From NCBI GenBank assembly GCA_031256725.1, contig JAIRQE010000006.1, positions 150,601 to 182,600 of the forward strand: a stretch of 32,000 bases of DNA, in the 5' to 3' direction. This document shows, piece after piece, positions 1 through 32,000 of this stretch (position 1 is its first letter; each line of letters begins with the position of its first letter). Both the position numbers and the translations under genes were made by a program. The notes below the pieces were generated by a model. That model had not been told where the DNA came from and did no database searches. It was given only the letters and a program-made list of their open reading frames with translations. Source of the DNA: Propionibacteriaceae bacterium. Lineage in GTDB: Bacteria; Actinomycetota; Actinomycetes; Propionibacteriales; Propionibacteriaceae.

Positions 1-2625
1 ATCACCCGCTTCGAAATGGTCACCAACGACCAACTCGCCAACGGAAAAGCCAAAGATTCCGCACGGGCTTACGCCTATGACACCTACGGTAATGAGGTGT
101 CTGGTGCTCATGTTATCGTGATCGATGTCTCTACCGATTTACTGGCCGGTTATCTGAACCCGGCTACAGCCACTGCCACTACCGGTAGTGACGGAACTGC
201 CCTCGTGGAGTGGACCTCCACCAAACAGGGGATCTTCACTGGGCAGGGTACTATCGACGGACTCTCTCCAGTGACCGGTATCCTGAACCAGATTCGGTTC
301 ATTGCTGGTAAGGCTGATCCATCTCACTCAGACCTCGTAGTGAGCCCAGCCAGTCCGATCGTCGTTGGCAACAATTACACGCTGAAGGTGACGGTACGGG
401 ACACAACCGATAATCCACTGGCTGGTGAAACGGTCAGCTTCTCAGTTGATTCGGACAATGCGATCTACTCTGAGACAACCTGCCAAACGGTCAGCGATGG
501 TACGTGCTCAGTCACCCTAACCTCGAAGCTGGTTGGAAGTTATCAGGTGTCGGCCGCTATCCCCAACAGCACTGGTGTAGCCACCAATGTTATCGGTAGC
601 CCAGCGATAGTGGAGTTCACTCACGGATCTGTTTGTGTATCCTCGCCGACGACACCGTGTGATCCGGTTGATCCCAGTCACATCACTCGAATCGAAGTAG
701 ATCCCAATGGCCAGCCAGCCGATGGTAAGGCTCAAGATGTGATCAATGTGTACGCCTATGACCGCTACGGCAATCCGGTTTTGAATGCCCAGGTTGATGC
801 AGTTGCAGCGACTGGTGTGACCTTGGCTACACCCGCCAAACCAGTGATTCAAGGTAATGGCCAGGCCATCGTGGGCTATACGTCGACGACCAAGGGCGAA
901 TACAAGGTGGATGTGACCGTTGGTGGACTAGTTCCCAATGGTTCACCTGCAACTCTGATTTTCAGGTCAGGAACCCCGGATTGGTCGAAGTCGACTCTGA
1001 TGATCACCCCAACGTTCCCACAGGTGGTCGAGTCAATTTTCACTGTTACTGCTCATGTTGTCGATACGAACATGAATCCTGTTTCGGGTGCAGTTGTTGT
1101 CTTCCCGGCGGTCACCAATCTAGCCTTCGACGCTAGCACATGTACAACGGATGACAATGGTAACTGCTCGGTGAAGGTGACCTCCATTAAGGCCAACACT
1201 TATGTGATCAGTGCAACTGGAGACGGTCAGCCACTGGCCAATACCGTCACTGCCACCTTCACCGCAGGTGAGATCTGTATTCCAGACGATGGTTGTGTGC
1301 CCGATGCTGGTGAACCCATCAGTCGGATTGAAACTGTCGTCAATGGCGTACTGCCTGATGGAATCCAGCACGATATCTTCAAAGTTTTCGCCTATGACAA
1401 GCATGGCAATCCAGTTTCTGGGGCCGACGTAGCATCGACGACTACTGACGCTCGTCTGATCACCCAGTCACCGATTGCAGCCACTGACTCAGATGGTACC
1501 TCGACGATTTGGTATGCCTCCCTCCATGGTGGAACCTATACCGCAGCAATGACAGTGGGTGGCAAGGTGCCCCAGGGTTCACCCGTTCACCCTGTGTTCG
1601 GTGGGATAGCCGATCCGGATCATTCCTTCTGGTCCGTATATCCGACAACACCACGTACTGTTGGTGTCGATCCGGATAATACTTTCACGATGACCGCGAC
1701 CCTGCGCGATGCCAATGATCTGCCCATGGTTGGCGCTGCGATGACTTTCGCTATTGATCCGGCAAGTGGCCCGACTTTCCCGAATGGTACGTCGTGTCTG
1801 TCGGACGCGGATGGAAAATGCACGGTGGATGTCTATTCCACTAAGGCTGGTACCTATTCGATCTCAGCGACCTCAGCCGGTCAACCGGTGAAGAGTCAAG
1901 CAGGACGATGGGCCGAGTCAGTAGTGTGGATCTCGGATGAGGTCTGTACTGAAGCATCAGGTTGCGTCCCGGTTGATCCCAATCTGCCGCAGAGCCTGCG
2001 TACCCGGGTGGTGGTGACTGAGGACTATATGGTAGCCGATGGTGATGCGCGTGATCTCGCGACCGTCTATGCCTTCGACAAATGGGGTAACGCTGTACCT
2101 GGTCAACTGGTGCAGTCATCCACAACCGAGAAGATGACGGTTCAAAGCGGGATAGCGGGTACAAATAGCAATGGTCAGTCGACTATTTGGTACTCCTCGA
2201 CCGTGTCAGGTGGTCATCTAGCTATGGTGAAGGTAGGGGGCAAGATCCCTGCTTCAATCAATTCAGATGGTACGTCATCTGGGGCAGGTACAATCACCCT
2301 AAACTTCATACCAGGTGCACCCGATGCAGATAAATCAGTTCTGACTGTGAGTCCTTCCATCCAAAGGGTGGGTGAGGATGTCAGTGCCACAGCTATTATC
2401 AAAGACGCCTACGGCAACCCCATATCGAATACGCGTGTGAGTTTCTCTTCGACCGGGGCATCAACACGCACAGGGGATAGTTGCATCACGGATGCAGCTG
2501 GCAGTTGCCAGATCTCGCTGACCGACAAGGTGCCGGAAACTATTCAGTTGAATGCGACAGTGGTGATCAACACAGCAGCCACCCCGATTTCTGGATCACC
2601 TGCGACCGTGACCTTTAACGATGTG
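1..2625 (+). repeat. Four tandem coding repeat units of ~212-226 aa (~640-680 bp) inside the adhesin gene
   Basis: Unit boundaries at nt 1, 682, 1318 and 1996 were read from the recurring ITRIE/ISRIE/LRTRV ... YAYD.xGN motifs. The units are divergent at nucleotide level, so these are protein-level repeats, not identical DNA copies. Confidence 0.8.
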
Positions 2626-3561
2626 ACCGCTCCGGAACCGCCAGTGATCACCTCTCCTAAGGATGGCGATCTGACCAACCACAGTTCAGTGATTGTCACA
2701 GGAACTGGTGAACCTAGTGCGGAGGTGACGGTGATAGACGAGAACGGTACCTCAGTGTGCGCCGATGTTGTCATAGTGGGCAGTGATGGTACGTGGACCT
2801 GTGAGGTACTACTGCCCGATGGTGAGCACACGTTGACAGCAACTCAGAAGGACTCGTCGGGTAATACCTCCGACCCGTCTAACTCAGTGACAATCACTGT
2901 CGACACCACACCACCCGACACACCGATTGTCGATTCATCCAATGGTTCTCAAGTGACTGGTTCCGGTGAACCGGGCAGCAAGGTGACGATCAAGGACCCA
3001 GATGGAAATGTCATCCCTGGTTGTGAAGACGTGTACGCCGATGAGGATGGTCACTTCGTCTGTATTCCGACTACAGTGATTCCTCCGGACACGGAATTGA
3101 GCGTCACGGTGACCGATGAGGCCGGAAATACCTCCGAACCAACCACCGTCGTGGTGGGTCGACTGGTTATTGAATTCGCCTATCCAACCCGGAATACTTC
3201 GCAGACCCAGATTGTCACCGGGGCCAATTTCAACCCCTATGAAAAGGTCTGTATGGAGTATTCGGGAGGTACCGAAAGGACGTGTACTACCGCCGATAAG
3301 GAAGGAAAAGTGAAATTCTCGTTTACGGTGCCTGGCAACCTCAAGGCAGGGGTGTGTGTCGTCACCTTGATTGGGGAACGCTCTGGTTCGGTAACGGGTA
3401 CCTTTTCGGTAACGAGTAGCTTCACAGGAATGAATACACCATTCGTCTCTACAGGTGGTACGGCAGTCCCGCAAGGGCTACACGTTGGCAGGTTGGTTGC
3501 TGCAGCGATGGTTGCAGCTGCAACCATGCCGCTAAGACGCAGGCGAGGCCCCCTCATGTAG
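1..3561 (+). CDS. Large cell-surface adhesin-like protein, 5'-truncated by the window edge. It has tandem bacterial Ig-like (invasin/Big_1-type) domain pairs, two further Ig-like domains and a C-terminal cell-wall-sorting-type signal.
   Basis: The frame is open from nt 1: ITRFEMVTNDQLANGKAKD... matches the start of the later internal repeats, so the listed ATG at 16 is internal. The motif I(T/S)RIE..NG..ADG.A.D...VYAYD.(Y/H)GNPV recurs at nt 1, 682, 1318 and 1996. Two VTAPEPPVITSP...DSSGNTS / TPPDTPIVDSS...DEAGNTS Ig-like modules follow. The C-terminus is FVSTGG, then the hydrophobic stretch LVAAAMVAAATMPL, then an RRRRG tail. Confidence 0.8.
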   Translation: MTRFEMVTNDQLANGKAKDSARAYAYDTYGNEVSGAHVIVIDVSTDLLAGYLNPATATATTGSDGTALVEWTSTKQGIFTGQGTIDGLSPVTGILNQIRFIAGKADPSHSDLVVSPASPIVVGNNYTLKVTVRDTTDNPLAGETVSFSVDSDNAIYSETTCQTVSDGTCSVTLTSKLVGSYQVSAAIPNSTGVATNVIGSPAIVEFTHGSVCVSSPTTPCDPVDPSHITRIEVDPNGQPADGKAQDVINVYAYDRYGNPVLNAQVDAVAATGVTLATPAKPVIQGNGQAIVGYTSTTKGEYKVDVTVGGLVPNGSPATLIFRSGTPDWSKSTLMITPTFPQVVESIFTVTAHVVDTNMNPVSGAVVVFPAVTNLAFDASTCTTDDNGNCSVKVTSIKANTYVISATGDGQPLANTVTATFTAGEICIPDDGCVPDAGEPISRIETVVNGVLPDGIQHDIFKVFAYDKHGNPVSGADVASTTTDARLITQSPIAATDSDGTSTIWYASLHGGTYTAAMTVGGKVPQGSPVHPVFGGIADPDHSFWSVYPTTPRTVGVDPDNTFTMTATLRDANDLPMVGAAMTFAIDPASGPTFPNGTSCLSDADGKCTVDVYSTKAGTYSISATSAGQPVKSQAGRWAESVVWISDEVCTEASGCVPVDPNLPQSLRTRVVVTEDYMVADGDARDLATVYAFDKWGNAVPGQLVQSSTTEKMTVQSGIAGTNSNGQSTIWYSSTVSGGHLAMVKVGGKIPASINSDGTSSGAGTITLNFIPGAPDADKSVLTVSPSIQRVGEDVSATAIIKDAYGNPISNTRVSFSSTGASTRTGDSCITDAAGSCQISLTDKVPETIQLNATVVINTAATPISGSPATVTFNDVTAPEPPVITSPKDGDLTNHSSVIVTGTGEPSAEVTVIDENGTSVCADVVIVGSDGTWTCEVLLPDGEHTLTATQKDSSGNTSDPSNSVTITVDTTPPDTPIVDSSNGSQVTGSGEPGSKVTIKDPDGNVIPGCEDVYADEDGHFVCIPTTVIPPDTELSVTVTDEAGNTSEPTTVVVGRLVIEFAYPTRNTSQTQIVTGANFNPYEKVCMEYSGGTERTCTTADKEGKVKFSFTVPGNLKAGVCVVTLIGERSGSVTGTFSVTSSFTGMNTPFVSTGGTAVPQGLHVGRLVAAAMVAAATMPLRRRRGPLM

Positions 3562-3680: not shown

Positions 3681-4040
3681 ATGCGTATGAGAACCTCTCC
3701 ACCTACTCGACTTCCAGCGGATGTGTACGAATCGGCTCTGGCATCTGCGGGAGTGGACTCGCGCAGTGTTCCTCAGCAGATTGCGCACTGGGCCCGGATT
3801 GGTCGGGAATTCGAAAACTCCCCGCAAGTGAATCATCGGGCCATTGCCCAAGTTCTTGCCGGGAATGGCTTCTATGATCTGTTGGGCGAGCGCGAGCAGG
3901 CAGTGGTACGAGGTGCCTGGTCGGAACGGATCGCTACCTTGCGGGAATCCTTGAACTTGGCTTCTGAGTTTATGGATGCTGGTGATTCCTATTCTGAGGC
4001 TGATGAGAATGGCACACTCATGATCCATCCAGGACAGTAA
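3681..4040 (+). CDS. ParD-like antitoxin (putative partner of the downstream zeta-like kinase)
   Basis: The 119-aa protein (LPADVYESALASAGVDSRSVPQQIAHWARIGRE...) looks to me like the ParD-like antitoxin family usually found upstream of small zeta/COG4185 P-loop proteins. Its stop TAA (4038-4040) shares one base with the next ATG (4040). Confidence 0.55.
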   Translation: MRMRTSPPTRLPADVYESALASAGVDSRSVPQQIAHWARIGREFENSPQVNHRAIAQVLAGNGFYDLLGEREQAVVRGAWSERIATLRESLNLASEFMDAGDSYSEADENGTLMIHPGQ

Positions 4041-4609
4041 TGCCTGTTCTTCATCTTCTTGCAGGGCCGAATGGCGCTGGAAAAACCACCTATGCCACCA
4101 GAGTCCTCATTCCTGCCACCAGGTTGACTTTCATTAATGCCGATGTGATTGCGGCCCAGATTTGGCCTGATCATGAGAGTGACCACGGTTATGAGGCTGC
4201 GCAGATTGCCCAAGAGCATCGTCGAGAATTCATGGAGCGAGGGGAATCCTTCATCTCAGAGACTGTCTTCTCTCACACATCGAAAGTTGATCTTCTCGCT
4301 GATGCCTCAGCCATGGGGTACCTCATCCATCTTCATGTGATTCTTGTACCACTGGAACTCACGATTCAGCGTGTTACTGAGCGCGTTCGTCGGGGCGGGC
4401 ACAGTGTACCCGAAGAGAAAATACGAGGAAGGTACGCACGGCTGTGGGATTATGTGGGCGCTGGGTTGAAGATCGCTGATGTGGGGGAAGTACTCGATAA
4501 TAGCAGTGCCCGTTATCCTTTCCGCGTGTGCGCGCGATTCTTCCATGGGTCAGTGATTGGAACCCCAACCTGGCCACAGTGGGCTCCTTCAGTACTCCTA
4601 AGGTTTTAG
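4040..4609 (+). CDS. Zeta-toxin-like P-loop kinase/ATPase (putative type II toxin)
   Basis: 189 aa with an N-terminal Walker A (LLAGPNGAGKTT) and the FISETVFSH ... RVRRGGHSVPEEKIRGRY pattern typical of short zeta-toxin/COG4185 proteins. It is translationally coupled to the upstream small gene. Confidence 0.7.
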   Translation: MPVLHLLAGPNGAGKTTYATRVLIPATRLTFINADVIAAQIWPDHESDHGYEAAQIAQEHRREFMERGESFISETVFSHTSKVDLLADASAMGYLIHLHVILVPLELTIQRVTERVRRGGHSVPEEKIRGRYARLWDYVGAGLKIADVGEVLDNSSARYPFRVCARFFHGSVIGTPTWPQWAPSVLLRF

Positions 4610-10197: not shown

Positions 10198-10247
10198 AAT
10201 AATTGGTAATTGACACGGAGGTAATAATTGGTAATTGACACGGAGGT
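10198..10247. repeat. Perfect 25-bp tandem duplication (aataattggtaattgacacggaggt x2)
   Basis: Read directly: copy 1 is 10198-10222 and copy 2 is 10223-10247. Each copy contains a consensus -35-like TTGACA (10210-10215 and 10235-10240). It lies in the divergent intergenic region between the epimerase and the PLD-SNF2 gene. Confidence 0.95.
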
Positions 10248-10281: not shown

Positions 10282-10330
<49 letters not shown>

Positions 10331-10373: not shown

Positions 10374-13300
10374 ATGAGCCGCATCGTTGACAATATCTCC
10401 CTGACATTGTCGGATGTGCTCAATGGGGTTCTTCCGTATTCATCGAGGCTTGATGCCTGTGTTGGTTACTTCAATCTGAGAGGGTGGCGCTCGCTTCGAG
10501 ACAGTATTGGACAGATGCAACCAGATGGCAGCGAAGAATCTCAAGGGTCCACGGTTCGTCTCCTTGTGGGGATGGCAGTCTCCACAGATCAACTAGTGCG
10601 ACAAGATCTTGAAAAAGGCACTCAGCGGATTGATCATACCTTGGCTTTGCGTCGTGCGGATCAAGCGGTACTAGGATTCGCCAAACAACTGACATGGGGG
10701 ACGCCAACATCCTTTGATGAAGCGGGTTTACGAGTACTGCGAAAAGACCTAGAAAACGGGCTTCTGACGGTGAAGTTTGCTGCGCGAGAACCGTTGCATG
10801 CCAAGCTTTATGTTGCACGTCTTGTGGGAGGACTCAGAGCATTTCATGCTGTGGTGGGATCATCCAATTTCACGGCGGCAGGGTTAAGCAAGCAAGGAGA
10901 ACTAAGCCTTGAAGAGACCGATGCTGAATTGACTGCTCAACTCGCACAGTGGTTTCAAGATCGTTGGGATGATCAGTATTCCATGGACATCACAAAACAG
11001 TTGATTGAAGTTTTGGAAGAGTCTTGGATTCGTGAAACCCAACCCAGACCATATTTGGTCTATCTTCGACTTGCCTACGAGCTTTCCCGGGATGCTCGTG
11101 CTGGGCTTACTTTGGATATTCCCAGTGATGTTCGCAGACTACTGATGCCTCATCAAGAGAGTGCGGTCAGGGTTGCTACGAAACTTCTCCAGAGAAAAGG
11201 CATTGCAGTTATTGGTGATGTGGTTGGTTTAGGAAAAACACTCACAGGTACTGCCATCGCAGCAACAACAGGTGAATCGGTACTTGTGATTGCTCCTAAG
11301 AACCTGACTCAAACATGGCAAGAACATCTTGAGCGTTTCCATATCCCAGGAAGAGTTATCAGTTTGAGTATGGTGGCAAAGGAATTGCCAGATTTGAAGC
11401 GATTCCGACTCGTACTCATAGATGAGTCTCACAATTTGCGTAATCGACAACGGAAAGCATGGGACGCGATCCACACATATGTCGACGACAATGACTGCAA
11501 AGTGGTTCTTCTGACGGCAACAATGTTTAACGCTCGCCATGAGGATATTGGTGGTCAACTTGGGCTTAAGATTCCTCTGGATCAACCGCTTGGTGTTCGA
11601 CCTGAAAGGCATATTGCCACTGTGGGTGCGCAGGCATTGGCAGCTAGAACGAATGGACGCCTTGACACACTCGCTGCCTTTGAACAGTCAGAGTTTAATG
11701 AGGATTGGCAGAGACTTCTCAGCGAATTCCTCGTACGCCGAACCCGCAGGTTCTTGGAATCCACATACGGTGTCACAGATCCCAAAACTGGTCATACGAC
11801 ACTGAGTTTCCCTAATGGCGAAAGCTTTCGATTCCCGAAGCGTATTCCTGAGGCATTGAATTACCAAGGTGGGCCACAAGATCCGAATGACCGACTAGCA
11901 ACTGAGGAGGTGTTCGAGTCCGTCGTGGGGCTCTCCTTTGCTTGCTATCAGTTGGGAGCTTATCTGGTGGATGATGTGGTGGCATTGGACAAAGAAGAGG
12001 AGGAATTGATTAATGACCTCCGGCGTTCAGTACAGACAGCAGCTGGTTTTATTCGCACGACGGCTTTTAAACGCCTCACCTCTTCTGCCCATGCTTTTAT
12101 TTTGACGATCACAAGGATGATAGCTCGTAATGCCGTTCTGGACTATGCATTATCTCAGAGGCTCCAAGTGCCCATGGGTAGTTTTTCTTATGGTTTCTTT
12201 GATGTCAACGATGATGATGATATTGATGATTCTCAAGAAGAAGCTGTACCCACAGGAGTGAACTGGTCAACCACTCAATGGCAGGGTAACGCACAACAAG
12301 CTTATGAGGCCTTGGACGCTTCCAATCCGAAAGGACTTCGTTGGGCTCGACCCGGATTGTTCAAGTCACATGAGGTTCTATCCAAAGTACGAGCCGACTC
12401 TGAGGTGTTACAGGGACTTCTCAATAGATATGGTACGTGGCATCCCGATCAGGACACCAAACTACGTGCCTTAGCTGATTTGATTGAAGGGCTTCCCCCA
12501 GATGAGAAGGTCTTGGTATTTAGTGAGTACAAGGACACTGTCGACTACTTAGCCAAGTATCTTCCAGACTATACGGATCGTTCCTTGGCGTCAGTCAGTG
12601 GGCAATCTAGTGACCCATTACGTGTTGCTCGCCGTTTTGCCCCTCGAGCGAATGAGGATATTGGAGGTCTCCCAAGTGGGGAAACTGAAGTTGATGTACT
12701 TATCACAACAGACGTTCTTAGCGAAGGACAGAATCTTCAGGATGCGCGCATTGTTGTGAATTGGGATCTTCCCTGGACAATCATCAAGATTATCCAAAGA
12801 GCTGGTCGTGTTGATCGCATCAAGCAAAAAGCGGAAACAATCCGGGTATTGTCATTCCTTCCACAAGGAGGAGTGGAGGAACAGATCAATCTTCGTAGAC
12901 GGTTAGTCAAACGCCTCAAGAATGCTCAGCAAATCCTTGGTGGCGATGAGCGTTTCTTCGATGATGATGACTCCAGTGTAGATATTTCTGGACTCTTCGA
13001 TGGTACGGCTGATCTTGGGGAAGAAGAAGGAGAGGTCGACGCCTCATCGTTTGCTTTGGGTATATGGGAACAGGCAAGTGAAGATGATCGGCGCGAGGCC
13101 TTGGATTTACAGGAAATCGTCTATTCCACAAAAGTCATTGACGAGGGTAATCCTTACGTCCTTACATACGGAAGAACTGATGCTGGCACAGACTTGTTGG
13201 TTCGAACAACTCAGTCTGATCTTTCTTTTATCACACCAATGGAAGCACTTCAGGAGATGGTGAGTGAGGTCTTCGAAACAGCCAGTCCGACCCTAGGTGA

Positions 13301-13709
13301 CCATCTGCAACACATTGGAAGAGCAGTAGATGCGATGGGGGAGCAAGTAGCCAAGAATACGGTTCTTCTCCACACAGGTTTACGGAAACGTCTCTACGAC
13401 TTTTTAACCAAACAATCTCAACGCATAGATCTTCCCACGCCCATCAACGCTCAGATGTGTCAGGTGATTGATGCAGTGACTGCCAACCCCATTAGAGAGG
13501 ATGTCAAGTTAGAGGTGTCTGGGATCTTAAGACAAGTCAGGCACCTTGGAGATGACAGTGGATTGCATAGGTTGCTGGCCCTTCATGAAGAGCATGCATT
13601 AATTGATGTTCGCGATTACGGTGCTGATCGGGTTCAAGTCATTACAGGCATGGGTTTCAATCCGGTGGCCATCTCAAGTAGAGAAAAGAGTCCTCATTAT
13701 GACCAGTGA
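10374..13709 (+). CDS. PLD-family (HKD) nuclease domain fused to an SNF2/SF2 helicase-like ATPase
   Basis: 1111 aa with an AAGGA RBS 9 nt upstream. There is a single HKD motif (LHAKLYV...VGSSNFTAAGL, aa 141-170). SF2 motif I is GLGKT (nt 11226-11240) and motif II is DESH (nt 11421-11432). The C-terminal lobe has TDVLSEGQNLQD and QRAGRVDR. Confidence 0.9.
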   Translation: MSRIVDNISLTLSDVLNGVLPYSSRLDACVGYFNLRGWRSLRDSIGQMQPDGSEESQGSTVRLLVGMAVSTDQLVRQDLEKGTQRIDHTLALRRADQAVLGFAKQLTWGTPTSFDEAGLRVLRKDLENGLLTVKFAAREPLHAKLYVARLVGGLRAFHAVVGSSNFTAAGLSKQGELSLEETDAELTAQLAQWFQDRWDDQYSMDITKQLIEVLEESWIRETQPRPYLVYLRLAYELSRDARAGLTLDIPSDVRRLLMPHQESAVRVATKLLQRKGIAVIGDVVGLGKTLTGTAIAATTGESVLVIAPKNLTQTWQEHLERFHIPGRVISLSMVAKELPDLKRFRLVLIDESHNLRNRQRKAWDAIHTYVDDNDCKVVLLTATMFNARHEDIGGQLGLKIPLDQPLGVRPERHIATVGAQALAARTNGRLDTLAAFEQSEFNEDWQRLLSEFLVRRTRRFLESTYGVTDPKTGHTTLSFPNGESFRFPKRIPEALNYQGGPQDPNDRLATEEVFESVVGLSFACYQLGAYLVDDVVALDKEEEELINDLRRSVQTAAGFIRTTAFKRLTSSAHAFILTITRMIARNAVLDYALSQRLQVPMGSFSYGFFDVNDDDDIDDSQEEAVPTGVNWSTTQWQGNAQQAYEALDASNPKGLRWARPGLFKSHEVLSKVRADSEVLQGLLNRYGTWHPDQDTKLRALADLIEGLPPDEKVLVFSEYKDTVDYLAKYLPDYTDRSLASVSGQSSDPLRVARRFAPRANEDIGGLPSGETEVDVLITTDVLSEGQNLQDARIVVNWDLPWTIIKIIQRAGRVDRIKQKAETIRVLSFLPQGGVEEQINLRRRLVKRLKNAQQILGGDERFFDDDDSSVDISGLFDGTADLGEEEGEVDASSFALGIWEQASEDDRREALDLQEIVYSTKVIDEGNPYVLTYGRTDAGTDLLVRTTQSDLSFITPMEALQEMVSEVFETASPTLGDHLQHIGRAVDAMGEQVAKNTVLLHTGLRKRLYDFLTKQSQRIDLPTPINAQMCQVIDAVTANPIREDVKLEVSGILRQVRHLGDDSGLHRLLALHEEHALIDVRDYGADRVQVITGMGFNPVAISSREKSPHYDQ

Positions 13710-16700
13710 AACACCAATGATTCCCAACCTTCAGAACCTCTACTCATCTGGTGGCTTGAGCGACATGTTCATTGATGGACTTGGCTGGGAAGCCCCTAGT
13801 GAATCTGTGCCTCCTGTAGTGATACATGAGTCCATCTACTATCCCCAGTTAGCGTCCTGTCTTCGAGGTTTTAGGATTTACCAGGTTCCTTGCAGCGAGC
13901 GTCCCACGCGTACTCTCATGCGTGATATTGATGCTCAGCTGAGACTTTTATCACCCGAGCGGATGGCTGTATTTGAGGGGCCAAATGAATGGTTTTGGTA
14001 TTGGCCTCGACATTCAAGTTCGGGGACAACAACATACGAGTCCATAGAAACACGCCCAGCATTGTTGCCTACTTTTCTTGCCCAGCGATTGTGTGGGTTG
14101 AAATTCACAGCCAGTGATCATCGAAATGGGATTACTTTGACTGATGTCTGTAATAGAGTCCACGGACATTTTGATGCAAGTAATGTCACAGCTGCGTTCT
14201 ATAGACAGTTCCAAGTAGAACATCAGCATCTATCTGAGGTGATCTTCGGGATTCCTGAGTCCGAGAATACCGGATACGCCACAACGTTATTGAACAGGAT
14301 GATGTTTATTTACTTCCTTCAGAAAAAGGAATTTCTTAATGAGGACATGAACTATTTAGAAAACACTCTTGCCGCTGTTCAAGAGATCCGTGGGCGTGAC
14401 CACTACTACACTTTCTATAGAGATGCCTTGCTTCCATTATTCTTCAATAAACTCAATGACAGTGATGGAGTGATCAAGGATCCGGAAATCCTACGAATCT
14501 TGGGTGATGTTCCCTATGTGAACGGAGGTATCTTCGGAAGAACAGATCTTGAGGAGGAATTCGCCGAGGAACTGTCGATACCTGATGAGGCCTTTGAGCG
14601 AATCCTTAGGTTTTTTTCGCAGTTCAATTGGCATCTTGATACGCGACCTACGGGAAATGATAGAGAGATCAATCCGGAAGTCATAGGTTATATCTTTGAG
14701 CAGTACATCAACTTTGCCGCTTCTGGGCAAAGAGAGAATGGCGCTTATTACACACCACATGATGTGACGTCATACATGGTTGCGCAGACTGTGATTCCTC
14801 GAATCATGGATAACCTTAGCAACCTTGATCATGCTTTCCGCCTTCTTATCACCAATCCTGACCGATATATACAGCCCATGATGCTTCATGGGTGGAGTGA
14901 GGCTGGACAATGCTGGGAACAGGTTCCTGAAAAGCTTCAGATCGCCTGGGATGGAGATCCGCTCACGTGGGTGCTGCTTGATGATGCAGAGCCTGATCCA
15001 TTGGTGAATCTTCCTGGAGAGACGTGGGTAGAAACCTTCCATCGACGTGAACGTGTTGAAGCATTGCGGAGCCGGATGAGTTCTGGAGAGATACGAGAAG
15101 TCAACGACTTGATTACGGATAATCTCAATACGCAGTTGCTACTCACCGATTTTATTGATCTCATGGATGATCCCAGTCATCTTGCTGAGCTTTTTGACGA
15201 TCTAACTGGGTTGAGTGTCTTTGATCCGACTTGTGGTTCGGGAGCCTTCTTATTTGCTGCACTAGAGGTTTTAGAGGATGTTTATGCCCATATCATTGAT
15301 AATGCTCTGGGTAGAGGTGGGGAAGCAGTTGAGTCGCTGCTAACGCAAGTGAAGGCTCAACCGAGTTCTCGGTACTTTATTCGAAAGCATATCGCGATTC
15401 GTAATCTCTATGGTACTGACTTAATGCCAGGAGCCATAGAAACAGCCAAGTTAAGGATATTTCTTTCATTAGCCGCTTGCGTGGATACACGAGAAGAACT
15501 TCAACCGCTGCCAGATCTCGACTTCAATCTTAAAGCAGGCAACTTAGTGGTCGGATTCAAAGATGCGGAGGATGTTTATCGCGTAGGAGGAGATCTGTTT
15601 ACGTTTACTCGCCTTGATGATCTCGTTCCCCGTATTGACAAATACTCTGAGCTATATTCATCTTTCGTTGAAAGCATTGAGTTGAATGATCATTCCTCGG
15701 TTGAGATTAAAGACCAATTGCGTCGCATGGAGGCAGAATTACGAACTGAGTGCAATGGCATCTATGCTGAGATATGTGGTTTCATAGATGACGGAGACAC
15801 ATGGGTGGATCAAGCTAGGCCATTTCATTGGTTTTGTGAATTTCCGGCCATTGTGCAAAAGGGTGGTTTCGACGTAATTATCGGCAATCCGCCGTATATC
15901 CGGATGCCTAGAGGCTCAGAACTGCAAGAATTATCCATTGGGTACGAAACTAGAAACTGCCCTGATTTCTACGCTGTCTGCTATGAGCGGAGCCTATCTT
16001 TATTACATGACTTCGGTCGCCACGCTTTCGTGGTTATGTCCAACCTTGCGTTTGGTGACGACTTTCTAAGTCTACGAGCTCTCATTGCACGCAAAGGAGC
16101 GAGTGAATGGTGGAGCACTTACGGGAAAATACCGCAACCATTGTTTGATGGAGTAAAAGTAAGAAATACGATTTTAGTTCTTGGCCCTGGCTGCCCGCTC
16201 CGAATGGTCACTCGTCATCATATTCATGCTAGCATTCAGCGGCCATGGCTTTTTCCAACAATTGAGTTTGCTAGATCAGCAAGATTGGGAGATCTCTGGC
16301 CAATTCGCGGCGGTGTGGCAACATCAATACTAGAGAAAATCGCAAGTCTGCCGAATGACACTTCCCAAATGGGTAATGAATATCTTTACTTACGAAACAC
16401 GGGTGCATATTGGTTTCCAGTGTTATTAGGCCCAGCGCCTACCTTAGATATGGATTTTAATGTTATCGAGGAAGTCACCTCAGTCCTTAAGCCTTTTCGG
16501 TTGCATATTGACGAAGTAAGGCGCGATGTCGCCGCGATTCTTGGTGGGAAAATCGGTTATTTGTGGTGGACGGCTGTTGGTGATGACTTGAACTGTTGGC
16601 CAAGAGAAACCATAGTTCCTCGCGCGCTCGCGAATGTAGCGAAGATGAGCCTAGGCTGGCAAGATGCCGTTTCCAGCGTCATCAAAGCAGCAATAGAAAA

Positions 16701-16932
16701 CACAATCATTGTACAAAATGCTGGTAAGAACTACTTTAATATTCGGTGGAATAATGTTCGCGCATCGACGGACACCCTTGATAAACTTGCGTTTAATTCT
16801 GTCGGATTGAATTACTTGGACTGGCGCAGGCTTAATGTTCTTTATCGGCAAATGATGCGATCATCAGGCGATGGGCGAGGTCACTACGTCACCACTGAAG
16901 AAGCTAACAAATATCTTAACTGGGATGTGTGA
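13699..16932 (+). CDS. Large gamma-class N6-adenine DNA methyltransferase (Eco57I/TaqI-like catalytic core, PglX/DrmMI/Type IIG-like architecture) with a C-terminal specificity-type region
   Basis: SAM motif I is VFDPTCGSGAFLF (~15222-15240) and catalytic motif IV is GNPPYI (NPPY at 15886-15897). The upstream helical region has NWHLD, EVIGYIFEQ and AYYTPHDV. About 330 aa follow the catalytic core. The likely start is ATG 13699, which overlaps the helicase stop by 11 nt (alternative ATG 13717). The listed ORF start at 13603 lies inside the helicase gene. Confidence 0.85.
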   Translation: MTSETPMIPNLQNLYSSGGLSDMFIDGLGWEAPSESVPPVVIHESIYYPQLASCLRGFRIYQVPCSERPTRTLMRDIDAQLRLLSPERMAVFEGPNEWFWYWPRHSSSGTTTYESIETRPALLPTFLAQRLCGLKFTASDHRNGITLTDVCNRVHGHFDASNVTAAFYRQFQVEHQHLSEVIFGIPESENTGYATTLLNRMMFIYFLQKKEFLNEDMNYLENTLAAVQEIRGRDHYYTFYRDALLPLFFNKLNDSDGVIKDPEILRILGDVPYVNGGIFGRTDLEEEFAEELSIPDEAFERILRFFSQFNWHLDTRPTGNDREINPEVIGYIFEQYINFAASGQRENGAYYTPHDVTSYMVAQTVIPRIMDNLSNLDHAFRLLITNPDRYIQPMMLHGWSEAGQCWEQVPEKLQIAWDGDPLTWVLLDDAEPDPLVNLPGETWVETFHRRERVEALRSRMSSGEIREVNDLITDNLNTQLLLTDFIDLMDDPSHLAELFDDLTGLSVFDPTCGSGAFLFAALEVLEDVYAHIIDNALGRGGEAVESLLTQVKAQPSSRYFIRKHIAIRNLYGTDLMPGAIETAKLRIFLSLAACVDTREELQPLPDLDFNLKAGNLVVGFKDAEDVYRVGGDLFTFTRLDDLVPRIDKYSELYSSFVESIELNDHSSVEIKDQLRRMEAELRTECNGIYAEICGFIDDGDTWVDQARPFHWFCEFPAIVQKGGFDVIIGNPPYIRMPRGSELQELSIGYETRNCPDFYAVCYERSLSLLHDFGRHAFVVMSNLAFGDDFLSLRALIARKGASEWWSTYGKIPQPLFDGVKVRNTILVLGPGCPLRMVTRHHIHASIQRPWLFPTIEFARSARLGDLWPIRGGVATSILEKIASLPNDTSQMGNEYLYLRNTGAYWFPVLLGPAPTLDMDFNVIEEVTSVLKPFRLHIDEVRRDVAAILGGKIGYLWWTAVGDDLNCWPRETIVPRALANVAKMSLGWQDAVSSVIKAAIENTIIVQNAGKNYFNIRWNNVRASTDTLDKLAFNSVGLNYLDWRRLNVLYRQMMRSSGDGRGHYVTTEEANKYLNWDV

Positions 16933-17211: not shown

Positions 17212-17245
17212 CCAGTAAGTTAATACATCCAGTAAGTTAATACAT
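17212..17245. repeat. Perfect 17-bp tandem duplication (ccagtaagttaatacat x2)
   Basis: Read directly: 17212-17228 and 17229-17245. It ends 22 nt upstream of the CDF transporter start, just before the gaaggaag RBS. Confidence 0.95.
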
Positions 17246-26316: not shown

Positions 26317-27165
26317 TTAGTGTTGCATTCCAGCTTCTGCTAGAACGCTGTCATGGATAGCATGGTAGATGGTTTCTGCTTGGGTTGGTGGGATGTCTCC
26401 GCAGTATTGGTAGAGACGCTGATGGTTGAACCAGTTCACCCATTCAGCAGTAGCAAATTCGACCTCGTCCACGTTTTTCCAGGGCTTCCGGGGTTTAATG
26501 AGTTCAGTTTTATACAACCCATTCACAGTTTCGGCTAGCGCATTATCATAGGAGTCACCGACCGAGCCCACTGACGGAGTAATACCCGCCTCGGTCAACC
26601 GTTGCCCATACATTAACGACGTATATTGACGACCACGATCCGAGTGGGCCACGAGGGCTGTCAGGTCACCGTGGCCTTCATGGTCTCGAACCCAGATCGC
26701 ATGCTCACAAGCATCCAGAACCAGGTCAGTAGTCATTGTTGTACTTACCCGCCATCCCAAGATTCTCCGGGCAAACCCGTCAATCACGAATGCAACATAC
26801 ACCCATCCAGCCCACGTGGACACATACGTAATATCGGCAACCCAGAGTTGGTTCGGAGCAGTCGGGGTCAACATTCTCTCCACATGATCAACAGCGACCT
26901 CATGGGAATCATCTGGGATTGTTGTGCGATGCGGACTGCCTCGATGAATCCCGTGAATACCCATGTCAGCCATGAGTCGTTCCACAGTGCACCTCGCCAC
27001 AGGGATGCCTTCCTTATTCAGGGTTAACCAGATCTTCCTGGCTCCATACACCCGATAATTCGCATCATAAACACGACGAATATGCTCACGCAGAACCATG
27101 TCTCGCTGCTCACGAGGGGTGGGAAGCTTGTCCCGCCATTCATAATACGTGGACGGGGCAATCCG
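26317..27165 (-). pseudogene. IS3-family transposase OrfB (DDE/rve integrase core), disrupted from its N-terminal segment by an extra frameshift
   Basis: DDE region: WVADITYV, HSDRGRQYTS, NALAETVNGLYKTE. The post-slippage frame ends at a TGA (27140-27142), while the DDE frame opens only after a TAG (27166-27168). The junction reads SEHGIA|IAPSTYYEW, which is consistent with one extra base near 27163-27166. Confidence 0.7.
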
Positions 27166-27261: not shown

Positions 27262-27585
27262 TCACAGTCCTGGCCGGTCTAACTCGGCCGCAAAAAAAGC
27301 TGATGCCGCTTTCAGGATTGCGTTCGCTCGACGCAGTTCAGCATTCTCTCTTTTCAACCGTTTCAGCTCAACTGATTCCTCACTGGTCACCCCAGGGCGT
27401 TGACCAGCATCAACCTGGGTTTGACGCACCCAACGAAGCACTGCCGCCCCAGAACCCACACCCAGCAATTCAGCAACCCTGTTCACGGTAGCGGTATCCG
27501 AAGAGTAATTATCCCTCGACTCCTGAAACATCCTCACAGCACGGGCCCTCAACTCAGGAGAATACCTATTATTCGCACTCGACAT
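27262..27585 (-). CDS. IS3-family transposase OrfA (HTH/leucine-zipper part)
   Basis: 107 aa: YSPELRARAVRM ... ELKRLKRENAELRRANAILKAASAFFAAE. This is the typical IS3 OrfA ending at the frameshift window. Confidence 0.9.
   Translation of the reverse strand: MSSANNRYSPELRARAVRMFQESRDNYSSDTATVNRVAELLGVGSGAAVLRWVRQTQVDAGQRPGVTSEESVELKRLKRENAELRRANAILKAASAFFAAELDRPGL
27292..27298 (-). other. Putative programmed -1 ribosomal frameshift site (U UUU UUU on the transposase strand)
   Basis: A7 on the + strand is T7 in the orfA frame (GCT TTT TTT GCG). The -1 frame continues as ...TVIVDFIGEYRDHDSDGLRWGVEPICRVLSEHGI, which is the typical N-terminus of IS3 OrfB. Confidence 0.6.
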
Positions 27586-27660
27586 GACTCAAACCTTCCT
27601 TCCAAATCAAACAGAGTCAAGTCTCCGGACTCGCCGGGGGGATTCATTCCGGGGGATTCA

Positions 27661-27916
27661 GCGCGCTGGGTCGTCCGTCGCGTTGACTGTAGAACAGTGG
27701 CGTGGAGTGGTTGTTGCGCTGGTCAGAGTGGAACTCGTTGAGGTAGCCACGCAGGTGGTCAACGGTTTTCCTCATGAGTGGCATGTTCCTGGTTTTCCCG
27801 CCTTTACCAGACGAGTCAAAAATGTTGCAGCAGCCATCCCAGAACATACATGCTCCGATAAGTAGTCCAGGATTTTGTCCGCACCCCCACAGGGCAACTT
27901 CAACTTGACAAAACAT
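27661..27916 (-). pseudogene. Tyrosine recombinase (phage-integrase family) internal fragment, truncated by the IS3 insertion
   Basis: ...FDSSGKGGKTRNMPLMRKTVDHLRGYLNEFH...TPLFYSQRDGRPSA matches the GKGxKxRxVPL...L..YL...PLF segment of integrase catalytic domains. The reading frame runs straight into the IS terminal repeat. The N-terminal domain and the C-terminal HxxR/Y region are absent. Confidence 0.6.
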
Positions 27917-28012
27917 AGATTGATACTAGAGTGTTAATAGTTTTAGAATTTTCGTTCAAAGGTTGAACGTATTCTGGAGACTGTATTGAAAACCCATCCG
28001 AATGGAGGAAAA

Positions 28013-28309
28013 ATGAAAAACCGTATTGTCCCCGCCATGGCTGCTGCTTTACTTGCCTTTGGTGGAATAGGGCTCGTAGCAGCTTCTGAGGCCACTGCGC
28101 CTGAGGCACAGGCGGCAACCTGTTATTACAGCAATCTCTCTACATCTAGAGTCTTAAATGTAAATTGCACAGCAGGTGGTGCCTATGGATACAAGAATTC
28201 AGCTAATGCATCCACGGGTTACCGAGTAGGAGCTTGGGTGTCACCGGGATACTATTCCTATAACCCCAACCCAGTTTGCTATGCCTACCCTACTATGGTT
28301 AAGAGATGA
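28013..28309 (+). CDS. Small secreted Tyr/Gly/Asn-rich protein with three Cys (bacteriocin-like candidate)
   Basis: ATG 28013 is preceded by GGAGGA (28004-28009); the listed TTG 27986 is less likely. It has a Sec signal peptide (MKNRIVPAMAAALLAFGGIGLVAASEATA) and a mature part of ~69 aa. Confidence 0.7.
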   Translation: MKNRIVPAMAAALLAFGGIGLVAASEATAPEAQAATCYYSNLSTSRVLNVNCTAGGAYGYKNSANASTGYRVGAWVSPGYYSYNPNPVCYAYPTMVKR

Positions 28310-28330
28310 TAGTGAGTTTATCAACCATTA

Positions 28331-29029
28331 TTGGATAATTCAGCCCAGTGTACTATGTCTAAAATTAAGAAATCTATAAATGTAGTTGGCGGGGATCCTA
28401 TCGACCTCGCTGTTAAGACTAGCTGGATTAGTGACTCTGTGGTCCACCACTTCGTTAAAAAATCCACGAGGAGAAGTTCTCGCCTGGGTCTTGTGCTGGT
28501 GGTGGGCCTCAGTGTCATGGTATTGGCAGCTTGTTCAACCATTGACAAAACTGCTACTCCACAGTTTACTGGCCCGTGGGGCGATATCTATGCTTACTAT
28601 TATGAGACATCAGAAAGTGAGTTAGGTCGAGAAATTTTGAGTGATGGAGTTATCACTGATATGGAATTTCAGGAGGCAATGCTGGAAATCGAGCAGTGCT
28701 ATCTGAATGATGGATTTAGGGTTACATATGATCCGTATGGATTCGAAACTGTTGAGAGTATTGGTGGAACGCAGGATCCACTTGAAGAGATGGGGAAATG
28801 TGCTTTTGCCGATGGTGGAGTCGTTGTTTTATACTACCAGATAGCTCGAAATCCTAACCATATGAGTGAGGAGGAACTGTTGGCTGAATGTCTCGTTCGA
28901 ATAGAAGTTGTCGAGCCAGGGTTTACCGCACAGGACTTTGAACGTGCTATGCAATCGGGAGTGATACCTTGGGATTCAACTGATCCACGTGTGACGGAGT
29001 GCTATAAAAACCCTTTGGACCTATTTTGA
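28331..29029 (+). CDS. Putative lipoprotein of unknown function
   Basis: A basic stretch (KKSTRRSSR), a hydrophobic core and a lipobox (VLAA-C-S). The start is uncertain: TTG 28331, ATG 28355 or GTG 28439. Confidence 0.6.
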   Translation: MDNSAQCTMSKIKKSINVVGGDPIDLAVKTSWISDSVVHHFVKKSTRRSSRLGLVLVVGLSVMVLAACSTIDKTATPQFTGPWGDIYAYYYETSESELGREILSDGVITDMEFQEAMLEIEQCYLNDGFRVTYDPYGFETVESIGGTQDPLEEMGKCAFADGGVVVLYYQIARNPNHMSEEELLAECLVRIEVVEPGFTAQDFERAMQSGVIPWDSTDPRVTECYKNPLDLF

Positions 29030-29044
29030 TGAGAAGATCTAGTT

Positions 29045-30106
29045 GTGAATACTGCAAAGCAGACTGATAACAGTACGCACACTAAGCGTCGATGGGTGCC
29101 ATTGTTCATAGTGGTGCTTACTGGTGTCATGGGGATGGGAGTCGCTGCTGGGTCATTGTTCTTTCCGATTTCCACGCCTGCTCCATTGGAATCCTCGGGA
29201 ATTATCGCAGAGGCCCCCGTTGACATCGGTGGGTTCTCGGATTCACGCACTATTTCGCTGCTGGTGTCTACTGTCGAAGGTGCTCACCTTAAGGTAGCAA
29301 GATCTGGATTGGTTACTGCATCTTCATGTTCTCCCGGTGTAACCATAAAATCAGGTTCTACGATGGTCAGTATAGATGGGCAACCAATTTTAGCTCTTGC
29401 CACCAGTCAGCCACTATGGAGAGAATTTCCAGTCGGTTCAACTGGCCGTGATGTGGATGTCTTGTTTTCTGCCTTGCGGGAGTTGGGTATTGAGATTAAA
29501 GGGCAGACTGTTACTAGGTCTGTGCTGCGATCATATGAAGGCCTACTGAAATCGATTGGTGTGTCAACAGCCATTACCAGTATCGAACCATCGGACTTAA
29601 TGTGGCTTCCAGCAAGTGAGGTTACTGTCTCTTCATGTGATCTCCATATTGGTGGTGAGATATCTGGACGTACCACCGTTGCCACCTTACCTCCCACAGT
29701 TTCATCGATTACACTCAAAGAAGTTCCTGGGGATCTAACTCCTGGGGACCGAATGCTCATTATTGATGGGATAGAAATTCCAACAGATGATCAAGGTAAC
29801 GTTATTGCGCCTGAGGCGCTCAATCTCATCTCCCAAACCCAATCATTCGTACGCGCAACTACTACCGAGTCAGAAGTCATCATTACTGCTTCATGGTCTC
29901 TAGTAGAACCTGTTGAGTCCTGGACGATTCCCCCAAGTGCAATTGTTGTAGGAAAAACAGGGACATGCATCGTTGTGGATGGAAAACCCACTGCTATTAC
30001 GATTGTTGGATCTCAGTTAGGACAAACATTCGTGGTGCCGCAAGACTCATCTTTGCGCCCAAACATGGTGTCCCTGTCTCCTTCTGATCTGTCTCAATGT
30101 GAGTGA
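29045..30106 (+). CDS. Membrane-anchored HlyD/MacA-like periplasmic adaptor with a peptidoglycan-binding-like insert
   Basis: N-terminal TM (WVPLFIVVLTGVMGMGVAAG). The pattern IKSGSTMVSIDGQPILAL...PLWREFPVGSTGRDVDVLFSALRELGI is that of actinobacterial adaptor proteins. The C-terminal beta-rich segment is IPPSAIVVGKTGTCIVVDGKP. Confidence 0.55.
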   Translation: MNTAKQTDNSTHTKRRWVPLFIVVLTGVMGMGVAAGSLFFPISTPAPLESSGIIAEAPVDIGGFSDSRTISLLVSTVEGAHLKVARSGLVTASSCSPGVTIKSGSTMVSIDGQPILALATSQPLWREFPVGSTGRDVDVLFSALRELGIEIKGQTVTRSVLRSYEGLLKSIGVSTAITSIEPSDLMWLPASEVTVSSCDLHIGGEISGRTTVATLPPTVSSITLKEVPGDLTPGDRMLIIDGIEIPTDDQGNVIAPEALNLISQTQSFVRATTTESEVIITASWSLVEPVESWTIPPSAIVVGKTGTCIVVDGKPTAITIVGSQLGQTFVVPQDSSLRPNMVSLSPSDLSQCE

Positions 30107-30109
30107 ATC

Positions 30110-31776: not shown

Positions 31777-32000
31777 TTTCCCGAGGCCACTTATGATGTG
31801 TCCTTGTAGGCACTAGAGTGTAGGAAACCCTGAAAGGACACCCATGGAACCAACAAGAGAAAACCGGCTCTTCACAATCTTGCCTTCGTGTCCGCGGGTA
31901 GTCGGTCGTTCGTTCGTGTATGAAAATGGGTGGTGTGGGTTTCTGGGTTGAGGCCGACTCTCTATGGTCGTTGGAGGCCGTATTCTAGCCGGGTCGGGTC

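Follow-up and report, generated by a model that had tools for sequence, protein, structure and literature searches.

The window analysed here, a 32,000-nt stretch of a Propionibacteriaceae bacterium genome, metagenome-assembled according to protein databases (GenBank assembly GCA_031256725.1, contig JAIRQE010000006.1, positions 150,601 to 182,600 of the forward strand), contains two long, overlapping open reading frames (ORFs), hereafter gene 1 and gene 2. The former encodes a fusion of a phospholipase D (PLD)-type nuclease to a helicase-like ATPase, and the latter a large adenine methyltransferase. Positions below are those of the window unless another locus is named.

10374-13709, + strand: gene 1, 1111 aa, fusion of an HKD/PLD nuclease to an SNF2/RapA-like superfamily 2 (SF2) ATPase; predicted restriction subunit
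13699-16932, + strand: gene 2, 1077 aa, Eco57I/PglX-type gamma-class N6-adenine DNA methyltransferase; predicted modification and specificity subunit

The stop codon of gene 1 occupies positions 13707-13709 and the ATG of gene 2 lies at 13699, so that the two genes overlap by 11 nt. The longest ORF for gene 2 begins at a TTG codon at 13603; the ATG at 13699 is favoured by the alignment of homologues and by a public annotation of 1077 aa. GC content is 0.45-0.49 across ~9.5-17.5 kb of the window, compared with 0.52-0.55 in the flanks, and the immediate flanks hold housekeeping genes: an ABC sugar transporter, an N-acetylglucosamine 2-epimerase, a cation efflux gene and a NiFe hydrogenase operon. 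A first-pass annotation of this stretch, made from the letters alone, had described the two ORFs with their motifs and overlap, the AT-richer region, an upstream repeat and the housekeeping flanks, all of which held on re-examination. We consider it roughly 65% probable that the locus was acquired horizontally and forms a self-contained, two-protein defence operon, ATP-dependent and resembling a restriction-modification (R-M) system, and hold the details of its operation with less confidence.

The protein encoded by gene 1 divides into five parts:

10374-11018, + strand: aa 1-215, single-HKD PLD-type nuclease domain (H142, K144, GSSN at 162-165)
11088-11573, + strand: aa 239-400, SF2 RecA-like lobe 1 (Walker A GLGKT 285-289, motif Ia PKN, motif II DESH 350-353, motif III TAT 381-383)
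11574-12443, + strand: aa 401-690, long insertion between the RecA-like lobes, with an acidic, poorly conserved stretch at ~aa 610-630
12444-12953, + strand: aa 691-860, SF2 lobe 2 (motif V TDVLSEGQNLQ 779-789, motif VI QRAGRVDR 808-815)
12954-13706, + strand: aa 861-1111, variable C-terminal region (acidic linker, four-stranded beta-meander, helical bundle)

The motifs LHAKLYV...GSSNFT, GLGKT, DESH and QRAGRVDR are all present, and the hidden Markov model searches that the first-pass annotation had proposed identified PLDc_2 (aa 70-198, E 1.4e-7), RE_NgoFVII, ResIII and Helicase_C (E 7e-16) in gene 1, as well as Eco57I and N6_Mtase in gene 2; the Pfam SNF2-rel_dom model scored 23.2 bits on gene 1, against a cut-off of 24.9. 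SF2 motifs I-VI are complete and conserved, and the closest solved sequences in a profile search of the PDB were RapA (best, E 5e-12), Rad26 and a Sulfolobus (Sso) Rad54-like protein, the matches to the last two covering lobe 1. A long inter-lobe insertion is usual for SNF2-family enzymes. Among homologues 42-68% identical, residues H142, K144, S163-N165, G285-T289, D350-S352 and Q808-R815 are invariant or nearly so, as are motif III (TAT) and motif V, and the HKD residues are invariant in 14 gene 1 homologues. Where each chain carries a single HKD motif, as established for Nuc, BfiI and SauUSI, a dimer builds one active site; since gene 1 has only one such motif per chain, it would need to dimerize to form its own. 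The last 250 residues are the least conserved of the protein (mean identity 0.35, versus 0.63 in the motor). This C-terminal region was modelled by AlphaFold with a predicted local distance difference test score (pLDDT) of 83.3, and aa 850-1111 yielded no Pfam match and no significant Foldseek match in the PDB (best GlgE, E 0.02); it is a candidate surface for contacts with the partner or with DNA.

The order of PLD domain, SF2 motor and C-terminal domain is also that of SauUSI, a Type IV enzyme to which MtsD, the effector of the MANTIS system, is structurally similar, and gene 1 could on this ground be a modification-dependent, Type IV-like enzyme lying beside an orphan or antagonistic methylase. 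SauUSI, however, is solitary and recognizes modified DNA through a C-terminal reader of 5-methylcytosine, whereas family and fold searches detected no SRA, DUF3427 or other modified-base reader in the C-terminus of gene 1, and the adjacent methylase is obligatory. Were N6-methyladenine (m6A) the target, such linkage to an m6A methylase would moreover harm the host itself, and with any other target it would serve no purpose; we regard this explanation as very unlikely. In NgoAVII/CglI, PLD and helicase reside on separate proteins and the methylase is a C5 enzyme; neither these systems nor SauUSI have a PglX-type methylase partner.

Gene 2 comprises four parts:

13699-14073, + strand: aa 1-125, N-terminal alpha/beta domain (LGW...ER...WxWP) in alpha-beta4-alpha-beta3 order
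14074-14688, + strand: aa 126-330, conserved helical region, matching the position of the MmeI 'helical spacer' seen in relatives
14689-16098, + strand: aa 331-800, methyltransferase core (motif X GAYYTP 348-353, motif I DPTCGSGAF, motif IV NPPY)
16099-16929, + strand: aa 801-1077, variable C-terminal region; presumed target-recognition domain (TRD)

The core carries DPTCGSGAF at aa 509-517 and NPPY at aa 730-733, and was matched by the Pfam families Eco57I (aa 569-796, E 3e-19), MmeI_Mtase (aa 490-591) and N6_Mtase. Across homologues 42-68% identical, D509-F517 and N730-Y733 vary little or not at all, and the motif order, with motif I before NPPY and the recognition region C-terminal, is that of the gamma class. 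A sequence search of the PDB placed gene 2 closest to the BREX methylases PglX (8C45) and BrxX (9EWZ), CamA and TaqI. Identity drops from 0.55 in the core to 0.37 in the C-terminal region of ~280-330 residues, and many tblastn alignments to relatives stop just after NPPY; because of this variability and of where the alignments end, the C-terminus is presumed to be the TRD. Further support for that reading comes from other pairs. On Lactococcus cremoris plasmid pJM1F (locus L089, 1737-10230), the methylase end of a distant pair is followed by a TaqI_C-like specificity cassette in inverted orientation and by an Mpi-family invertase, which suggests specificity switching by DNA inversion, and Milman 2023 lists a 'Type II RM CDS with adjacent PLD+SNF helicase CDS' and confirms programmed inversions in such genes.

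The N-terminal domain of gene 2, to which the first-pass annotation could assign no function, was modelled by AlphaFold (pLDDT 87.6) as a helix, a four-stranded sheet, a second helix and three strands, followed by the conserved helical region. It returned no Pfam match, no PDB sequence or profile match and nothing significant in a Foldseek search of the PDB, where the top, non-significant fold match was the MmeI-family enzyme DrdV (E 0.039). In a relative, the domain is followed by a match to MmeI_hel, the Pfam family for the MmeI 'helicase spacer', and for this reason the layout of gene 2 parallels that of Type IIL enzymes, with the N-domain at the place of their PD-ExK nuclease. No PD-ExK motif was found in it, as the first-pass annotation had reported, and Pfam searches gave no match to MmeI_N, HSDR_N or any other nuclease family. 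The candidate D...(D/E)xK positions are H43, C54 and R56 in gene 2, and only 5 of 42 homologues retain a D/E...(D/E)xK pattern; conserved residues of the domain are mostly aromatic or hydrophobic, together with E26 and E87-R88. A hidden PD-ExK nuclease was accordingly rejected as a conserved activity of the family. The domain is probably a degenerate, non-catalytic nuclease-like domain that serves as an adaptor, and since it lacks conserved D...(D/E)xK residues, cleavage would have to come from elsewhere than gene 2.

These results bear on the possibility that gene 2 encodes an entire Type IIG enzyme, nuclease and methylase in one chain, and that gene 1 is an unrelated neighbour, such as an independent SauUSI-like helicase-nuclease. 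Like the Type IIG/IIL enzymes Eco57I, MmeI and DrdV, gene 2 combines a gamma-class methylase and a TRD in one chain; the PADLOC model REase_MTase_IIG (PDLC03628) matches it over aa 21-905 (E 1.8e-135), papers based on REBASE name homologues Type IIG, and the position of the N-domain, its best fold match and the few homologues that retain the pattern are all compatible with a nuclease there. Against this stand the unconserved catalytic positions and the apparent lack, in the same chain, of the PD-(D/E)xK endonuclease domain of those enzymes, to which may be added that no endonuclease similarity was seen in the N-terminus of a distant relative, HVO_A0079 of Haloferax volcanii (Ouellette 2018). 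Nor would unrelated neighbours be expected to co-occur in 96% of loci (see below) on a shared strand with overlapping stop and start codons, and gene 1 has no recognizable modified-base reader such as that of SauUSI. We therefore think this explanation unlikely. The 'Type IIG' label of PADLOC and REBASE-style annotation reflects membership of a REBASE-derived cluster and is no evidence of a nuclease; because the conserved D...(D/E)xK residues are missing, it does not fit gene 2.

A single-sequence search of 1.84 billion representatives found the N-domain almost only in methylases of ~1075 aa, the rare exceptions being fusions to CarD_TRCF_RID or to sigma-70 regions. At locus L074 (4319-5785) an N-domain without a methylase, joined to sigma-70 regions 2 and 4, lies directly downstream of the PLD-helicase. 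Two tandem paralogues, P0241 and P0242 (locus L087, 738-3413), are N-domain and CarD_TRCF_RID fusions adjoining a DUF3320 fragment. The idea prompted by L074, that the N-domain is a dedicated helicase adaptor, is weakly supported: these CarD_TRCF_RID fusions, the closest stand-alone N-domain proteins, sit in another context with no PLD-helicase nearby. That the domain contacts the helicase in the present pair is a guess.

The distribution of the pair was surveyed with one genome per species, for which 80 loci were kept; with three annotated metagenome or genome loci (83 scanned) and five plasmid loci, ~90 loci were covered. Gene 1 has thousands of full-length relatives in protein databases and at least 581 species genomes, spanning more than 15 phyla, encode one; phyla represented among the 80 loci include Actinomycetota, Chloroflexota, Acidobacteriota, Bacteroidota, Verrucomicrobiota, Planctomycetota, Latescibacterota, Poribacteria, Nitrospirota and Desulfobacterota, together with Alphaproteobacteria. 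Tblastn with gene 2 detected a methylase homologue beside the helicase, in the same orientation, in 72 of the 75 informative loci (96%); eleven loci lacked one, eight of which are uninformative, with less than 600 nt of contig on the usual methylase side. The helicase gene mostly precedes the methylase gene, the order being reversed in seven loci, and in 37 of the 57 helicase-first loci the genes overlap or are separated by at most 30 nt. Where there are gaps between the two, they hold unrelated selfish genes (PIN/VapC toxins, KilA-N, DUF3800, a four-helix-bundle protein, GIY-YIG), and a conserved third gene between the pair was rejected on this evidence. Selfish inserts of this kind are a familiar pattern of Type I R-M operons.

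Clustering of 711 neighbouring ORFs revealed no recurrent large partner gene, and ten large neighbours scanned against Pfam as possible hidden DUF499, YprA/DUF1998 or PglZ proteins proved to be PhoD, histidine kinase, Lhr, FtsX and similar. Neither DrmA/DrmB (DUF1998/YprA), PglZ/BrxC and DUF499/DUF3780 nor a separate specificity gene recurs beside the pair in the 80 genome, three metagenome and five plasmid loci, and no DrmA/DrmB, PglZ/BrxC, DUF499 or DUF3780 gene occurs among the ORFs of the window. The first-pass annotation had taken the pair to stand alone and had named the company of DrmA/DrmB, PglZ/BrxC or Res/Mod partners as the sign of a decayed fragment; since homologues are not so accompanied, that reading was set aside, and on gene content the pair is best described as a conserved, autonomous module.

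A decayed remnant of class 1 DISARM, ARMADA, BREX type 3 or MANTIS would nevertheless be one source of such a pair, because a helicase and a PglX-like methylase form a module common to those systems and partial matches to DrmD/DrmMI, BrxHII/PglX and the Gao_RL 'HKD+Snf2' model were obtained. Scores were far under the cut-offs. The best PADLOC match of gene 1 was the 'HKD+Snf2' (Gao_RL) model, at E 8e-32 and with partial model coverage; it scored 140 bits against NCBIfam phospholipD_antiphage (cut-off 1100) and 102.6 bits against DISARM_DrmD (cut-off 610), and the PADLOC DrmD match was partial only (E 4e-27). For gene 2 the PADLOC DrmMI match was likewise partial (E 1.5e-22), the BREX PglX models of NCBIfam gave at most 52 bits against cut-offs of 400-900, and the top PADLOC matches placed it nearer the REBASE 'IIG' cluster, DrmMI and PglX than any Gao_RL methylase model. 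With both ORFs intact, every catalytic motif conserved and no DUF1998/YprA, PglZ, BrxC or DUF499 protein recurring in the surveyed loci, we give a remnant hardly any credence.

The genomic contexts of relatives are those of defence and mobile elements, and the neighbourhood survey that the first-pass annotation had called for found the pair travelling together. Of three annotated relatives, one lies beside McrBC in a conjugative element (an integrative and conjugative element, ICE, with a type IV secretion system), one beside Mrr and a PIN/Phd pair, and one among toxin-antitoxin genes. Plasmid-borne pairs occur on pSYSX of Synechocystis, in other cyanobacteria, in Rhodococcus and in Microbacterium, and, at 24-28% identity, in Deinococcus, the archaea Thermococcus and Haloferax, and Lactococcus.

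The pSYSX locus provides published data on a homologue. The methylase slr6050 of Synechocystis PCC 6803 aligns with gene 2 over 1022 aa at 33% identity (E 5e-157), the PLD-helicase of pSYSX is 36% identical to gene 1 over its full length, and the locus reads PLD-helicase, a VapBC-type insert and then slr6050, an order matching that of the pair in the window; to judge from these alignments, it is a true member of the two-gene family. slr6050 was designated M.Ssp6803IV and assigned the motif GA(m6A)GGC, tentatively and by elimination, its deletion could not be segregated, and it was handled as an orphan or Eco57I-like methylase, with no mention of the PLD-helicase and no restriction assay (Hagemann et al., 2018; PMC6105098). 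Methylation of GA(m6A)GGC would be confined to one strand, because the complementary strand has no adenine. A methylase that cannot be deleted is what would be expected if the adjoining PLD-helicase were a live restriction partner.

The second homologue with published data is more distant. HVO_A0079 of Haloferax volcanii was deletable and associated with no detectable methylation (Ouellette 2018). On pHV4 (locus L088, 5703-12707), HVO_A0079 overlaps a downstream 777-aa PLD-domain gene that is directly followed by an IS4 transposase, and the Haloferax system may have been disabled by this IS4 insertion. Both the Synechocystis and the Haloferax methylome papers (Hagemann et al., 2018; Ouellette 2018) call the methylase 'Type IIG' or orphan.

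Comparison with characterized systems supported the earlier view that the pair resembles DISARM, Type III and Type ISP systems and matches none of them, nor BREX, the defining features of each being absent, and extended the list of relatives by one that the first-pass annotation had left out: MANTIS/Gao_RL (BR type 2), with MtsD and MtsC, is the closest known system in its parts, and Type ISP the closest in its logic. The MANTIS comparison was made through PADLOC and NCBIfam models and published descriptions. In the effector MtsD, an HKD/PLD nuclease at the N-terminus is joined to an SF2 (Swi2/Snf2-like) ATPase, an architecture that gene 1 shares without belonging to the same family, and in both cases a large N6-adenine methylase provides, or would provide, specificity and self-marking. 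MtsC hemimethylates 6-bp asymmetric sites, and the effect of the sites is orientation-dependent (Shaw et al., preprint 10.64898/2026.09.23.753747; Rakesh and Krishnan, 2026, PMC12839542). MANTIS differs in consisting of four proteins (MtsA-D), DNA binding by MtsC depending on both MtsA, a DUF499 AAA+ loader, and MtsB, a small DUF3780-type protein; the MtsA and MtsB genes are absent from the window and from the ~90 related loci, and no recurrent large ATPase or small conserved gene accompanies the pair in the 80 surveyed loci.

The best functional analogy is offered by the Type ISP enzymes LlaGI and LlaBIII, which likewise unite a nuclease, an ATP-driven motor on double-stranded DNA (dsDNA), a gamma-class adenine methylase and a TRD, recognize asymmetric sites, methylate one strand and cut away from the site after translocation. 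In these enzymes, however, a single chain holds all the parts, the nuclease being of the Mrr type (PD-(D/E)xK) and the motor similar to Type I HsdR, whereas here a stop codon separates two ORFs, the nuclease is of the PLD type and the motor SNF2/RapA-like; neither LlaBIII nor LlaGI appeared among the PDB sequence matches of gene 1 or gene 2. Class 1 DISARM (DrmD-DrmMI), ARMADA (ArmA-ArmB) and BREX type 3 (BrxHII-PglXI) contain superfamily-level homologues of the pair, an adjacent RapA/BrxHII-like motor and Eco57I/PglX-like methylase. In DISARM and ARMADA these always work with a YprA/DUF1998 helicase and in BREX with PglZ/BrxC, and their SNF2 protein has no nuclease, unlike the present one, which carries its own HKD nuclease and has no third conserved partner. 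DrmA and DrmB, diagnostic of class 1 DISARM, are absent from the window and related loci, as are PglZ and BrxC/PglY, diagnostic of BREX, and gene 1 and gene 2 match DrmD and DrmMI only partially. Type III R-M systems pair a beta-class Mod with a Res subunit whose PD-(D/E)xK domain lies C-terminal to the helicase, in contrast to the gamma-class methylase and N-terminal PLD found here.

These comparisons suggest how the pair might operate; the methylation-gated translocating nuclease of the first-pass annotation is, like a role in defence, an inference. Gene 2 would read a short asymmetric sequence through its variable C-terminus and methylate one adenine on one strand as a mark of self. Gene 1 would have no sequence specificity of its own and, with half a PLD active site per chain, would act as a dimer, recruited or licensed by gene 2 at an unmethylated site. 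Its motor would then move along dsDNA with the consumption of ATP and the nuclease would cut away from the site, most likely when complexes coming from oppositely oriented unmodified sites meet, as in Type III, Type ISP and MANTIS. The degenerate N-domain of gene 2 and the variable C-terminus of gene 1 are candidate contact surfaces between the two. Because one-strand marks leave one daughter duplex unmarked after replication, self-tolerance would almost certainly require communication between opposite sites. Dimerization through a single-HKD domain and ATP-dependent translocation before cutting are established for SauUSI and the PLD-helicase systems NgoAVII/CglI. More specifically, the pair may represent an unnamed, very widespread two-component class in which a nuclease-dead, Type IIL-like methylase with its TRD licenses in trans a dimeric SNF2 motor with a split PLD site, with no need of an AAA+ loader, YprA or PglZ; we propose this tentatively, at somewhat less than even odds.

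The same proteins could in principle form an epigenetic, BREX-like or housekeeping module that methylates DNA and remodels or excludes it without cutting, or a phasevarion. SNF2/RapA-type motors often remodel protein-DNA complexes, the nuclease activity of MtsD has not yet been measured directly, a (TC)n tract upstream of gene 1 is potentially phase-variable while Cj0031-type enzymes act as phasevarions, and the occasional fusion of the N-domain to sigma-70 regions 2 and 4 or to CarD_TRCF_RID would suit such a role. Yet the HKD residues are invariant over wide divergence, which argues for a nuclease site in use, and the patchy, plasmid- and ICE-borne distribution beside other restriction genes, the selfish insertions in the operon, typical of R-M loci, and the unsegregated slr6050 deletion, which fits a toxic partner, all speak against it. 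A non-cutting role deserves some consideration and is, in our judgement, unlikely.

Several observations weigh against a self-contained two-protein defence operon. Three loci (L037, L047 and L074) are real helicase-only loci. The slr6050 motif was assigned only tentatively, and the 'essentiality' of that gene could have other causes in a polyploid organism, while the distant homologue HVO_A0079 yielded no detectable methylation, though its PLD partner is truncated by an insertion sequence (IS) element. The locus has no AAA+ loader, so the MANTIS analogy may fail at the recognition step, and fold searches of the gene 2 N-domain and the gene 1 C-terminus gave no significant match. In the full-text literature searched, mostly outside subscription journals, the two-gene system was nowhere named, defined or tested. 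The first-pass annotation's claim that the pair was uncharacterized as a stand-alone system stands to that extent; the architecture itself had been tabulated (Milman 2023) and the homologue slr6050 is in REBASE. The building blocks and general logic are thus already known, and it is the two-gene system that is unnamed in the literature found.

A further point on the same side is a DprA-like gene, on the same strand downstream of the methylase, in 24 of the 80 loci, which the proposed model leaves unexplained. Examples are the DprA/Smf-like genes (Pfam DNA_processg_A, E 1.9e-14) of loci L032 (16714-17349) and L077 (17686-18147), and an MTaX1+HNH gene is found in several of these loci as well, for example in L044 (16915-17919). 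Both genes are absent from this window. The DprA-like gene may be an optional third component, and the earlier description of a minimal two-gene cassette needs qualifying in this respect: the pair is the core, and with about a third of relatives carrying the additional gene it may not always be the whole system. In the Poribacteria locus L047 (10001-19332), a PLD-helicase and a DprA-like gene are separated by genes for an AlbA_2-type protein and an AAA ATPase, and a methylase is missing within 10 kb. In the Latescibacterota loci L030, L033 and L034, a protein of ~210-230 aa and then a conserved one of ~1000 aa (for instance L034, 18036-21065) follow the methylase, the larger preceding the DprA-like gene in L033 and L034.

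Were the pair to work as proposed, no simpler case would be known of a PglX/Eco57I-type methylase directing an HKD-helicase nuclease, and, at two proteins compared with four in MANTIS and four to six in DISARM, ARMADA and BREX, it would be a tractable model for how methylase-directed helicase-nucleases are licensed, that is, how recognition of an unmethylated, one-strand-marked site leads to ATP-driven restriction without autoimmunity. It could represent the minimal core from which, or alongside which, class 1 DISARM, ARMADA, BREX type 3 and MANTIS were elaborated. Many REBASE 'orphan' or 'Type IIG' methylases, slr6050/M.Ssp6803IV and HVO_A0079 among them, would then be halves of such systems, and a systematic annotation error would be corrected in which the methylase is tagged 'Type IIG' and the nuclease-helicase 'helicase-related protein'. 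The apparent essentiality of slr6050 would find an explanation, and, the pair being very widespread, there would be consequences for the transformability of the actinobacteria, cyanobacteria and environmental phyla that carry it.

The intergenic regions on either side of the operon contain repeats and one short ORF:

10198-10247, + strand: two copies of a 25-bp perfect tandem duplication, AATAATTGGTAATTGACACGGAGGT, upstream intergenic, with TTGACA in each copy
10284-10328, + strand: (TC)22.5 dinucleotide repeat, 45 nt 5' of the gene 1 start codon
17004-17192, + strand: ORF of 62 aa (MSDDLMVLNTEVAPRDPDEF...) between gene 2 and the cation-efflux gene, with no family match
17212-17245: two copies of a 17-bp perfect tandem duplication, just before the cation-efflux gene

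The (TC)22.5 tract, which the first-pass annotation had described as hypermutable, is indeed present and potentially so, and phase variation of gene 1 is possible; it may also be an assembly artefact. It is peculiar to this locus, which rules it out as a family-wide phase-variation device: no (TC)n tract was seen upstream of gene 1 homologues at the 83 loci scanned, only one of which had any repeat, (GC)6 in L064. The 25-bp duplication is a candidate promoter or operator element, and a scan upstream of gene 1 found neither a complete sigma-70-type promoter on the + strand nor a convincing promoter near the (TC)n tract. The 25-bp and 17-bp duplications lie on either side of the low-GC region and are likewise peculiar to this locus; neither is a copy of the other or an insertion-site duplication, and no direct or inverted repeats flanking the island as marks of insertion were found.

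Elsewhere in the window, positions 16-3561, near its edge, encode a very large surface protein of 1181 aa with many Big_1/invasin-type Ig-like repeats. In a likely toxin-antitoxin pair at 3681-4609, ~6 kb upstream of the module, the antitoxin is ParD-like (119 aa) and its partner a kinase of 189 aa resembling zeta-toxin/AAA_33. An IS3-family transposase (rve, HTH_21) lies on the - strand at 26317-27099 and is followed by a second low-GC stretch (27500-32000, GC 0.46-0.48) with several ORFs without a Pfam match and an ABC ATPase, which may be another acquired island.

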